Part shown: positions 20,582 to 21,312 of the stretch, one piece after another
Position numbering within the stretch: the first letter of the stretch is position 1
How the letters are laid out: each line of letters opens with the position of its first letter
Assembly (NCBI GenBank): GCA_035758565.1
Contig: DASTXL010000002.1
Span: forward strand, 211,118 to 275,117
From: Candidatus Saccharimonadales bacterium
Lineage (GTDB): Bacteria; Patescibacteriota; Saccharimonadia; Saccharimonadales; UBA10212
Length of the DNA: 64,000 bases
Direction: 5' to 3'
The notes under the pieces: model-generated
What the model was told of the DNA's origin: nothing
The model's database searches: none
The model's input: only the letters and a program-made list of their open reading frames with translations
Translations under genes and position numbers: made by a program

Positions 20582-20627
20582 GCCCTGAAAAACTTAAAAT
20601 AAGCACTTCTTTCAAAATGCTTATGCT

Positions 20628-20643
20628 TGGCTCCGGGGACTGG
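20628..20643. repeat. 16-bp perfect copy of the tRNA-Asn 3' end (att-like)
   Basis: TGGCTCCGGGGACTGG is identical to 20803-20818. Confidence 0.85.
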
Positions 20644-20769
20644 GTGACGCTTCGCTACTATCGTCGTCGCATGCTCGATGCAGGCATCTGCGCGTGCTCC
20701 TAGCTATCGCACCAGCGACTATCGCCAGCAAGCTGTCTAGTCGCTGAACCAAATCAGCCCAGAATAATA

Positions 20770-20794
20770 CAAAAACAGCCCACGAAGTGGACTG
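20770..20794 (-). terminator. Terminator downstream of tRNA-Asn
   Basis: Minus-strand CAGUCCAC-UUC-GUGGGCUG (8 bp including one G:U) followed by UUUUU. Confidence 0.6.
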
Positions 20795-20802
20795 CTTTTG
20801 TA

Positions 20803-20877
20803 TGGCTCCGGGGACTGGATTCGAACCAGCGACCTAGTGGTTAACAGCCACCCGCTCTACCGCTGAGCTACCCCGGA
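20803..20877 (-). tRNA. tRNA-Asn (anticodon GTT), CCA encoded
   Basis: Reverse complement TCCGGGGTAGCTCAGCGGTAGAGCGGGTGGCTGTTAACCACTAGGTCGCTGGTTCGAATCCAGTCCCCGGAGCCA folds as a 75-nt cloverleaf. Anticodon loop is CTGTTAA. Confidence 0.92.
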
Positions 20878-20880
20878 ATA

Positions 20881-21115
20881 AATTGTTTTATGAACTCTCG
20901 CCCTTGATGACTCTTGAGCTGCTTTTCTCTCTTTAGAGCTTCAGAACGAGTGGCAACAGACTCTTTGTAAATCAGTTTCCATTCACCCTGAAACTTAGCG
21001 TTAAAATGGTCACCCACCTTACGATTATTGCTTCCAGACGCCTACTTAAGTCTTCGGTTTGACCAACGTACGTTTTACGACTTTGGAGATTATAAATTGC
21101 GTAAACTACATACAC
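20881..21115 (-). pseudogene. GIY-YIG nuclease family gene (COG2827-like), apparently frameshifted by 1 nt
   Basis: From GTG 21115: VYVVYAIYNLQSRKTYVGQTEDLSRRLEA. After a frame slip near 21021-21033: NNRKVGDHFNAKFQGEWKLIYKESVATRSEALKREKQLKSHQGREFIKQL. Adding one base restores RRLEAHNRKVG. There is no stop before the tRNA. Confidence 0.55.
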
Positions 21116-21124
21116 AATTCAATT

Positions 21125-21164
21125 TTAACAGCCACCCGTCCGGCAGCTGCCGGACTACCCCGGA
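21125..21164 (-). other. tRNA-Asn 5'-half copy with the D-arm replaced by a 16-nt perfect palindrome
   Basis: TCCGGGGTAG + TCCGGCAGCTGCCGGA + CGGGTGGCTGTTAA. The flanking parts are identical to tRNA positions 1-10 and 26-38. Confidence 0.6.
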
Positions 21165-21167
21165 CCG

Positions 21168-21251
21168 TTAATGAGACAAACCTTACGGTTTTTCTCATCG
21201 CCCAGTCGGCAAAGCCGACCCTTGCGGGCAAGCTGGGCTGCTCTTTTCCCT
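21168..21251 (-). repeat. Left copy of an inverted structured module (sense on the minus strand)
   Basis: The reverse complement contains AGGGAAAAGAGCAGCCC ... GCGATGAG-AAAAACC-GTAA-GGTTTGT-CTCAT, matching 22541-22620. Confidence 0.55.
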
Positions 21252-21312
21252 TTAATCAAGAACGGAAAATAACAGATTGATTATAGCCGGCCACCACTGT
21301 TTGGTCAACGAT

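Follow-up and report, generated by a model that had tools for sequence, protein, structure and literature searches.

We analyzed a window of 64,000 nucleotides (nt) of DNA from Candidatus Saccharimonadales bacterium (GenBank assembly GCA_035758565.1, contig DASTXL010000002.1, positions 211,118 to 275,117; the coordinates given below are those of the window) and focused on its transfer RNA (tRNA) gene for asparagine and on the GIY-YIG nuclease gene that runs into it. The tRNA genes were called with ARAGORN and Rfam covariance models, and the proteins were compared with the profiles PF01541 and TIGR01453. A functional tRNA-Asn(GTT) gene with an encoded CCA lies on the minus strand at 20803..20877 (Rfam tRNA score of 70.5 bits). 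Upstream of it, on the same strand, are found the two parts of a GIY-YIG pseudogene, an N-terminal part at 21029..21115 (VYVVYAIYNLQSRKTYVGQTEDLSRRLEA) that ends at a 1-nt deletion and a C-terminal part in the -1 frame at 20868..21028 (...NRKVGDHFNAKFQGEWKLIYKESVATRSEALKREKQLKSHQGREFIKQFIPG*), whose last 10 nt overlap the tRNA. A copy of the 5' half of the same tRNA (21164-21125, minus strand) precedes the pseudogene. It consists of positions 1-10 (TCCGGGGTAG, 21155..21164), a perfect palindrome (TCCGGCAGCTGCCGGA, 21139..21154), and positions 25-38 (21125..21138), that is C25, position 26, the 5' strand of the anticodon stem and the anticodon loop. Judged by its sequence, the window copy is a pseudogene of a widespread and apparently undescribed cassette family.

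A first, sequence-only reading of this stretch had proposed a frameshifted stand-alone GIY-YIG gene, and the profile searches bore this out. All the elements that it listed were found at the coordinates it gave. Two open reading frames (ORFs), 20972-21115 with a GTG start and 20868-21017, are the halves of one gene. After addition of one base, the repaired protein matched PF01541 with E=1.8e-16 (60.6 bits, for a cutoff of 22.6) and aligned end to end with homologues of ~82 amino acids (aa). When taken alone, the N-terminal half passed the cutoff with 25.3 bits and the C-terminal half fell just under it with 21.7 bits; the part before the deletion covers profile positions 1-27 (E=1.9e-5). Alignment with the homologues placed the slip between 21029 and 21028, where the C of the catalytic His codon is missing (GCA[C]ATAAT). 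The deletion is kept in a Logan contig from SRR25158471 (L087) that is 100% identical to the window over 463 nt. It is therefore not the artefact of one assembler, though the reads may be the same. The reading frame expected of an active enzyme is not intact in the window and, with 1 nt deleted from the catalytic His codon and a GTG start, the nuclease encoded here is to all appearances dead. The same early reading had ended the protein at ...KQL and had seen no stop before the tRNA. The frame does run into the tRNA, but it has a stop there: the protein ends in ...KQFIPG, its last codons ATT CCG GGG are the acceptor strand of the tRNA, and the TAG at 20870-20868 is U8-A9-G10.

For the structure and representative searches, database homologues stood in for the repaired window protein. 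The AlphaFold2 (AF2) model of a homologue (mean predicted local distance difference test score, pLDDT, of 93.8) adopts the GIY-YIG fold with the topology E-E-H-H-E-H-H and matched 1zg2, 1ywl, Slx1, UvrC-N and I-TevI, the closest being UPF0213 and Slx1. By sequence, the UPF0213 proteins (1ywl, 1zg2) are the nearest relatives of known structure, and the I-TevI catalytic domain and Slx1 come next. Y16, G18, R26, H30, E53 and E65 (numbering of the repaired window protein) are invariant in the homologue alignments; N31 is invariant among 15 sequences and nearly so among 23. The score against TIGR01453, the profile of I-TevI-type group I intron endonucleases, was 26.5 bits for a cutoff of 56, which places the protein outside that family. 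The whole 82-aa length aligns to the catalytic core, with no DNA-recognition domain beyond it.

The claimed identity of the half-tRNA to the real gene also held on alignment, with 10/10 identical positions for 1-10, 14/14 for 25-38, and the perfect palindrome between them. The palindrome reaches 18 nt when G10 and C25 are counted in and is present once in the 64-kilobase (kb) window, against 0.01 copies expected by chance; the 14-mer of positions 25-38 occurs exactly twice in the window. The duplication had been read as ending at the edge of the anticodon loop. The identity does extend to position 38, but this end partly coincides with a -10-like box, TAAAAT (21127-21122). The box belongs to a putative extended -10 promoter with a leaderless start at 21113..21130 (minus strand; TGT-TAAAAT, 6 nt [TGAATT], GTG), which fits the spacing pattern of the family described below. 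Neither ARAGORN nor the Rfam model recognized the half copy as a tRNA, even at E up to 10, and only 20803-20877 was detected. No recombinase gene lies between 21164 and 20803, and Rfam found no group I intron in the window tRNA-Asn and no ribozyme core in the cassette.

A homologue search returned 224 protein matches, the closest of which are ~82-aa proteins from Patescibacteria. A GTDB scan with one genome per species uncovered 229 relatives; 80 of these 229 loci were fetched, and the family was analyzed as a set of 83 distinct loci, the window included. All 80 fetched loci are from Patescibacteria and are distributed over Saccharibacteria, Microgenomates, Parcubacteria, Berkelbacteria and WWE3 lineages. 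The cassette measures ~290 bp. Its GIY-YIG gene is located immediately upstream of tRNA-Asn(GTT) in 70 of the 83 loci and of tRNA-Lys(TTT) in one (L082). The stop of the ORF is exactly tRNA positions 8-10 in 47 of the 83 loci, or in 55 when eight intron-split or truncated tRNAs missed by ARAGORN are included (at least six of the missed tRNAs carry a group I intron after CTGT, at position 35/36), and four loci use as stop a TAG at positions 20-22, in another reading register. An ORF that runs into the tRNA is thus the normal design of the family and is unrelated to decay. The C-terminus I-[P/R]-x, encoded by the acceptor stem, was found in 99 of 120 close homologues, the first 120 of the matches being used for this count. 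The ORFs are under purifying selection, with a median ratio of nonsynonymous to synonymous substitution rates (dN/dS) of 0.15 and values of 0.04-0.08 for the closest pairs. The wider protein family comprises 1,131 clusters at 50% identity, and no relatives of the GIY-YIG protein were found in IMG/VR viral contigs. Full-text literature searches found no description of the cassette, it is absent from the papers closest to the subject, and the survey of tRNA-Asn introns by Nakagawa et al. (2026, PMC13011429) describes only HNH genes inside introns, with GIY-YIG genes, hairpins and duplications unmentioned; the family does not seem to have been described before. Some metagenome-assembled genomes (MAGs) with the cassette are labelled Gammaproteobacteria (L010, L029, L031, L032, L036, L054, L056, L065, L069 and L084) or Bdellovibrionales (L049 and L073), in conflict with their cassette and tRNA-Asn context, which are of the type seen in the candidate phyla radiation (CPR). 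These are probably mislabelled or chimeric bins.

A half-tRNA with a palindrome is present in essentially all loci and comes with three types of junction. Type A cassettes (48 loci) have the palindrome after position 13/14 and take up the tRNA sequence again at 18. The corresponding positions are 10 and 25 in type B (18 loci, the window among them) and 8 and 12 in type C (7-8 loci). The anticodon-loop attachment site that had been suggested at first is thereby replaced by a junction in the D-arm, after position 8, 10 or 13/14 according to the cassette lineage. The segment on the left side of the palindrome shares 98% identity with the resident tRNA and is perfect in 52 of 63 loci, despite differences in the acceptor stem between lineages. 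Relic positions 26-31 are 58% identical to the resident tRNA and perfect in 13 of 61 loci.

In a metagenome scan with the exact tRNA-Asn of the window (positions 1-73, 72 nt), at least 120 stretches matched; 80 loci were examined, and 61 of them had enough upstream sequence. Neither the cassette nor the palindrome was found in any of these 61 informative contigs with an identical tRNA, so that the cassette is sporadic among the tRNA-Asn loci of relatives. Cassette-free alleles from L165, L106, L148, L167, L156, L164 and L103 carry the terminator-like flank hairpin of the window, GATGAGAAAAACCGTAAGGTTTGTCTCAT, 8-10 nt before position 1 of an uninterrupted tRNA-Asn. In the window, this flank abuts the half-tRNA. 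Since the same flank stands against position 1 of the tRNA in the empty alleles, the half-tRNA represents the 5' end that the gene had before the cassette was inserted. An insertion is what the sequence-only reading had supposed, and it shows as a presence/absence polymorphism at one precise site. The interpretation offered by that reading is partly supported; its mobile insertion is largely right, with details to be corrected.

The comparison of cassettes between hosts speaks to their mobility. Clusters of the ORFs follow the junction type and not the host. All the type B cassettes fall into one clade that spans Saccharibacteria, Roizmanbacteria, Levybacteria and a Microgenomates MAG, and all three junction types occur in Saccharibacteria. 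In L027 and L036, the relic AGGAAGC(T/C)GT is typical of other hosts and differs from the anticodon stem of the host's own tRNA. A foreign relic beside a kept resident anticodon stem implies that the imported part of the tRNA is shorter than ~25 nt. The cassette does not, then, carry a whole replacement tRNA, as had been imagined, and brings at most the first ~25 nt. Cassettes also accumulate at one site. L020 (2498-3034) has a type A and a divergent type B-like cassette in tandem. As the first TAG is lost at the type B junction, the two are fused in frame into one double GIY-YIG ORF of 179 aa, and database proteins with two GIY-YIG stretches (P0127, P0148, P0154 and P0188) probably have the same origin. 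In L055 (2404-3280), three or more identical units follow one another, and a second half-tRNA that lacks an ORF is present in L010, L066 and L069. Decay is not limited to the window: an uncalled frameshifted GIY-YIG cassette of type C, with the frameshift also in the region of the HN motif, was found in L208 (1630-1945), L209 and L210, where it precedes a tRNA-Asn whose intron encodes an HNH protein; these loci belong to a widespread Saccharibacteria lineage (GCA_020428535.1) that is seen in 56 blocks of the collection. Horizontal spread and repeated invasion are apparent from these patterns, which were established by clustering by identity and not by a full phylogeny.

The hairpin is conserved by pairing. 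The consensus palindrome TCCGCCAGCTGGCGGA accounts for 52 of 85 copies and the remaining 20 variants, one of which is the compensated palindrome of the window, keep the pairing. Over the 21 distinct variants, 99.2% of cells are paired, and compensatory double changes are seen in 4 of 6 pairs. None of 500 shuffles reached the observed value, and slid registers fell to 25-56% paired. Four of the five one-sided stem changes are U·G in the sense orientation, a bias that weakly supports pairing at the RNA or single-strand level. The hairpin region of the window folds at -31.6 kcal/mol (z = -4.2). This covariation marks the hairpin as a selected cis element whose stem changes are compensated. The half copy itself, which the earlier reading had considered as a possible functional tRNA-like RNA element, does not score as a tRNA. 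The palindrome was also considered as a mimic of the tRNA-Asn acceptor stem, and this was rejected as the two do not co-vary across loci.

The position of the hairpin could be relevant for expression of the nuclease. A TAnnnT motif precedes the start codon by exactly 6 nt in 21 of 66 loci, against no more than 4 at any other spacing. A -10 box at this distance from the start codon is typical of leaderless messenger RNAs (mRNAs). Where this leaderless-type geometry applies, in roughly one locus in three, the palindrome lies over the -35 region, and the -10 box before the GTG of the window could likewise act as a promoter. Most of the remaining type A loci have a GGAGG Shine-Dalgarno motif 11-17 nt upstream of the ATG, which is made up of G18-G19 and the 3' arm of the palindrome and is partly hidden in the hairpin. 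With the gene inside the pre-tRNA and its stop codon inside the mature tRNA, cleavage by RNase P would yield a message without a stop. Promoter use and translation may both be controlled in this way.

We consider it rather probable that the locus is a decaying copy of an undescribed homing-type mobile cassette family that resides in the 5' part of the tRNA-Asn gene of Patescibacteria. Such a cassette is made of the 16-nt palindrome, an older relic of a tRNA 5' half that reaches the anticodon loop at most, the gene for the ~82-aa GIY-YIG protein, and a new copy of the start of the tRNA, 8-14 (up to ~25) nucleotides long. By entering the D-arm, it strands the original tRNA 5' end upstream, beside the palindrome, and rebuilds an intact tRNA downstream, whose U8-A9-G10 is the stop codon of the nuclease. 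The cassette would most likely spread by homing, where the nuclease, or a complex that contains it, would break cassette-free tRNA-Asn genes and repair would copy the cassette from the occupied allele. The hairpin would most likely be an RNA or DNA structure that marks the left end of the cassette and limits expression of the nuclease, which might be limited further by RNase P processing if this leaves a stop-less mRNA. The pseudogene of the window would then be the expected end stage of the life cycle of a homing endonuclease. The sequences show the anatomy, the insertion relative to empty alleles, the conservation across the family, the covariation of the hairpin, the purifying selection, the patchy distribution and the spread across hosts. 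We infer the cleavage of DNA and its specificity, the route of repair, the role of the hairpin, the control of promoter and translation, and the effect of RNase P.

Several points weigh against homing. The protein is an ~80-aa catalytic core without a DNA-binding domain, and I-TevI and other characterised GIY-YIG homing enzymes depend on such a domain to recognize their sites. The tRNA-Asn of the occupied allele is still intact and identical to that of the empty alleles over the 72 nt searched, so the carrier would not be immune if the tRNA alone were the target. Only 8-14 nt of homology would be available on the left side for transfer between species. No two near-identical genomes that differ by the cassette were recovered, and the flanks of the empty alleles are ~77-80% identical. 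The strong purifying selection would also fit a function beneficial to the host. Finally, further copies of the palindrome are found in the loops of other hairpins of cassette-bearing loci, which a simple homing model does not predict.

In a second explanation, the palindrome comes first: the 16-nt GC-rich palindrome would be a mobile mini-element that enters the loops of stem-loops, the Slx1/UPF0213-like GIY-YIG protein would be its structure-specific nuclease and cut the tips of hairpins or cruciforms, the D-loop of tRNA-Asn would be a preferred site, and the tRNA duplication would be a by-product of repair. In cassette-bearing loci, extra copies of the palindrome were found in the T-loops of decayed tRNA-Asn 3' relics (L017:2880; L030:2888 and 3056; L041:1417 and 2043), in both the D-loop and the T-arm of a complete pseudo-tRNA-Asn (L023:2846-2950), in terminal loops of the tRNA-Asn group I intron (L007:2859 and 2975; L039:2878 and 2975; L064:2831; L085:1146), in the loop of a terminator (L076:230), in a coding region (L086:1065), and nested in its own loop (L051, L056, L057 and L075). 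Rare variants of the palindrome are shared between copies of one genome, to a degree that was reached in 8 of 20,000 permutations, and no copy was found in 474 kb of cassette-free tRNA-Asn loci or in five distinct cassette-free, intron-containing loci (L211-L217). The closest folds of the modelled homologue, UPF0213 and the structure-specific nuclease Slx1, would also fit. However, the 64 kb of the window hold a single copy, the inspection covered only ±2.5 kb around each cassette, and the intron comparison (4/8 versus 0/5) is not significant. The concordance of variants within a genome could be due to gene conversion among nearby copies as well as to a genome-specific reader, and there is no biochemical precedent for a GIY-YIG enzyme that inserts a palindrome. 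We regard this explanation as unlikely. We give a similarly low chance to a related idea, that the palindrome is the cognate substrate or handle of a minimal GIY-YIG nuclease and that the two form a new mobile system that reads structure (tips of hairpins or cruciforms, such as the D-loop and T-loop of the tRNA and the loops of introns), or uses a guide made of the half-tRNA plus hairpin, in place of protein-based sequence recognition. If true, such a nuclease-palindrome system would explain both how an 82-aa core targets tRNA-Asn almost exclusively and how the palindrome spreads to stem-loops of the same genome.

The protein could also be a domesticated host nuclease, ancestral to Patescibacteria, vertically inherited, immobile, often lost, and co-transcribed with tRNA-Asn, for example for repair or RNA processing. 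The constant genomic position, the strong purifying selection, the presence in many CPR phyla and the lack of relatives in viral contigs would all agree with this. Such inheritance is hard to reconcile, though, with the absence of the gene from all 61 contigs that share the tRNA, with ORF clades that track the junction type and not host taxonomy, and with two divergent cassettes in one locus and the tandem arrays. Relics with anticodon stems foreign to the host tRNA, the one copy that moved to tRNA-Lys, and the pseudogenes tolerated in the window and in L208 add to this, and we find the domestication of an immobile gene improbable.

An RNA guide would be another way to give an 82-aa nuclease its specificity, with the half-tRNA transcript as guide, the hairpin as a handle for the protein, and the flanking 8-14 nt pairing with the target tRNA-Asn gene. 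The hairpin is conserved while its flank matches the target (98% to the resident tRNA though acceptor stems vary), the U·G wobbles are in the sense orientation only, and the protein has no DNA-binding domain. But the match of the left segment follows just as well from a plain duplication during insertion, a guide would target the tRNA of the carrier too, and in the leaderless-type loci the promoter of the ORF lies downstream of the hairpin, so that co-expression is not required. We know of no RNA-guided GIY-YIG enzyme, and we hold such guidance to be very improbable.

The placement of the cassette as cargo of large serine recombinase elements that use tRNA-Asn as attachment site is largely refuted and hardly credible, for although such a recombinase gene lies directly downstream of the tRNA in 13 of 51 cassette loci, it is absent from the other 38 and from the window, is also present in 4 of 40 cassette-free loci, sits on the 3' and not the 5' side, and is not shared by L001 and L002, which have the cassette in common and differ in the presence of the recombinase element. 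The recombinase was rejected as the mobilising enzyme on the same grounds of side and absence. Where present, it is encoded on the opposite strand and often overlaps the 3' end of the tRNA (among others in L027:2785-4329, L019, L031, L032, L051 and L058; also L002:4292-5845). The 3' end of tRNA-Asn is an integration hotspot in CPR bacteria.

As to where the cassettes come from, three loci have a similar layout that is built around an intron gene. In L215 (1943-2720), L216 and L217, an HNH ORF lies upstream of a complete intron-containing tRNA-Asn and not within its intron, and it comes after the decayed end of a 5' exon and a 5' portion of the intron. Many GIY-YIG relics, moreover, end at CTGT, which is the 5' splice site of the 35/36 intron. 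The two observations together suggest that the cassettes may have arisen from intron-borne endonuclease genes. A dependence of the cassette on the 35/36 intron ("collaborative homing") was considered and is not supported, the intron being present in at least 6, possibly 9, of the 83 loci versus 15 of 95 in the background. The HNH protein of the L008 intron (L008:2893-3210) matched 1,502 homologues in the protein collection at E <= 1e-10, a number far above the four intron-encoded HNH genes that PMC13011429 reports for complete genomes.

Parts of the cassette resemble known systems. The closest matches by sequence and fold are UPF0213 (YhbQ-like; PDB 1ywl and 1zg2) and the Slx1 domain, and UPF0213 proteins are single-domain proteins of ~80-100 aa. 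The identity is only 27-29%, however, no tRNA overlap or palindrome is reported for them, and Slx1 needs its partner Slx4. The Seg proteins of T4-like phages are reportedly encoded by free-standing GIY-YIG homing endonuclease genes, SegB within a tRNA gene cluster, and the F-CphI/psbA pair is said to show "collaborative homing," in which a free-standing endonuclease gene adjoins an intron-containing gene. In common with these, the cassette has its nuclease gene outside an intron and beside or within the presumed target, a presence/absence polymorphism, decayed copies and an association with tRNA genes. Seg proteins, on the other hand, exceed 200 aa and have DNA-binding domains, whereas the cassette encodes an ~82-aa catalytic core; Seg genes are phage-borne and the cassette is chromosomal in CPR bacteria; and the embedding in a tRNA gene with a duplicated 5' part, a shared stop and a palindrome is not described for Seg genes. 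SegB is mentioned in PMC13096335. The group I introns at position 35/36 of Patescibacteria tRNA-Asn (Nakagawa et al. 2026, PMC13011429) share the host gene and phylum with the cassette, at least six cassette loci carry one, relics often end at their CTGT splice site, and the layout around the HNH gene in L215-L217 is cassette-like. Unlike them, the cassette has no ribozyme core and is not spliced, and the tRNA-Asn of the window is intron-free.

Integrative elements that target tRNA genes likewise insert within the gene, leave a direct repeat of a tRNA segment at both ends and regenerate an intact tRNA, but the cassette duplicates the 5' and not the 3' part, has no integrase, is ~290 bp long and has its junction in the D-arm. 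Mobile GC-rich palindromes are known as the GC clusters of yeast mitochondria and the Rickettsia palindromic elements. They resemble the palindrome described here in being short, GC-rich, nested at times, and located inside structured RNA genes and other hairpin loops; the palindrome of the cassette differs in its tight linkage to a nuclease gene and to one tRNA locus. A minimal nuclease, a conserved palindrome, a stop codon shared with the tRNA and a tRNA duplication on the 5' side are not found together in any of the compared systems.

The single tRNA-Asn gene of the tiny Patescibacteria genomes is crowded with selfish DNA, with introns in the anticodon loop, serine recombinase elements on the 3' side and the nuclease cassette on the 5' side. 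The overlap is unusual in that the last three codons and the stop of a protein are the acceptor strand and U8-A9-G10 of a tRNA, and the family raises the question of how a bare 82-aa GIY-YIG core finds one tRNA gene. It may also bear on the spread of the 35/36 introns of tRNA-Asn, most of which lack an endonuclease. In practice, the ORFs and half-tRNAs of the cassettes mislead annotation, which disregards the tRNA overlap, lets N-termini reach through the palindrome and leaves pseudogenes uncalled, and the repeated tRNA segment breaks assemblies, as in the Logan contig, which ends inside the tRNA.

The remaining features of the locus frame the cassette. The upstream flank encodes a 354-aa protein without relatives in the genome and metagenome collections, and the downstream flank a 471-aa protein without an exact record. 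Just past the stop of the 354-aa gene lies a strong sigma-70-type promoter, apparently the native one of the tRNA-Asn transcription unit (21280..21308, minus strand; TTGACC, a 17-nt spacer and TATAAT, 11 of 12 consensus matches). Its motif, TATAATCAATCTGTTAT, is also found directly 5' of tRNA-Asn in the cassette-free locus L092. Between this promoter and position 1 of the tRNA is a structured leader of ~108 nt (21165-21272, minus strand), which starts with GGGAAAAGAGCAGCC, contains several hairpins and ends with the flank hairpin. It is conserved in L165, L106, L156, L164, L103 and L119 and has no match in Rfam. On the 3' side of the tRNA, inspection of the sequence and an inverted repeat point to an intrinsic-terminator-like hairpin at 20770..20794 (minus strand; CAGUCCAC-UUCG-UGGGCUG, then a U run), which a simple terminator scan did not list.

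Other elements were found on the 3' side of tRNA-Asn. In L035 (2944-3270) and L060 (3022-3260), a second, more distant UPF0213-like GIY-YIG gene (31-41% identity) lies downstream of the tRNA; the copy in L035 precedes a duplicate of the tRNA 3' end, an arrangement that suggests a different type of cassette on this side. In the window, a separate tRNA-derived element is located at 20626..20762 on the minus strand, outside the GIY-YIG cassette. It contains a third fragment of tRNA-Asn, overlooked in the sequence-only reading, at 20643-20628, which corresponds to positions 61-76 and from which the similarity runs 10 nt further downstream. The 159-nt spacer after the tRNA was considered as the remnant of a group I intron, since GGTTCAGCGACTAGAC resembles an intron core; this was rejected, since the spacer has no Rfam match and the motif is better explained as an inverted copy of the T-arm within the downstream element. 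The order of parts in the downstream element is the inverted T-arm copy, a variable hairpin, a copy of the T-arm 5' side, an insert of ~70 nt in the "T-loop," and positions 61-76 with the CCA. No Rfam family matches this element. Over ~135 nt, it is 73-78% identical in L112, L133/L155 and L150, all of which are without the GIY-YIG gene, and it is also present in L114 (73-78%; this contig has only 95 nt upstream), with partial copies in L136 and L147. In L165, the match to the window on this side of the tRNA begins only past the third fragment and the downstream element. Its presence in loci without the GIY-YIG gene indicates that the 3' fragment belongs to an independent element on the 3' side of the tRNA, and compensatory changes in 7 of its 26 predicted pairs give this element a modest covariation of its own.

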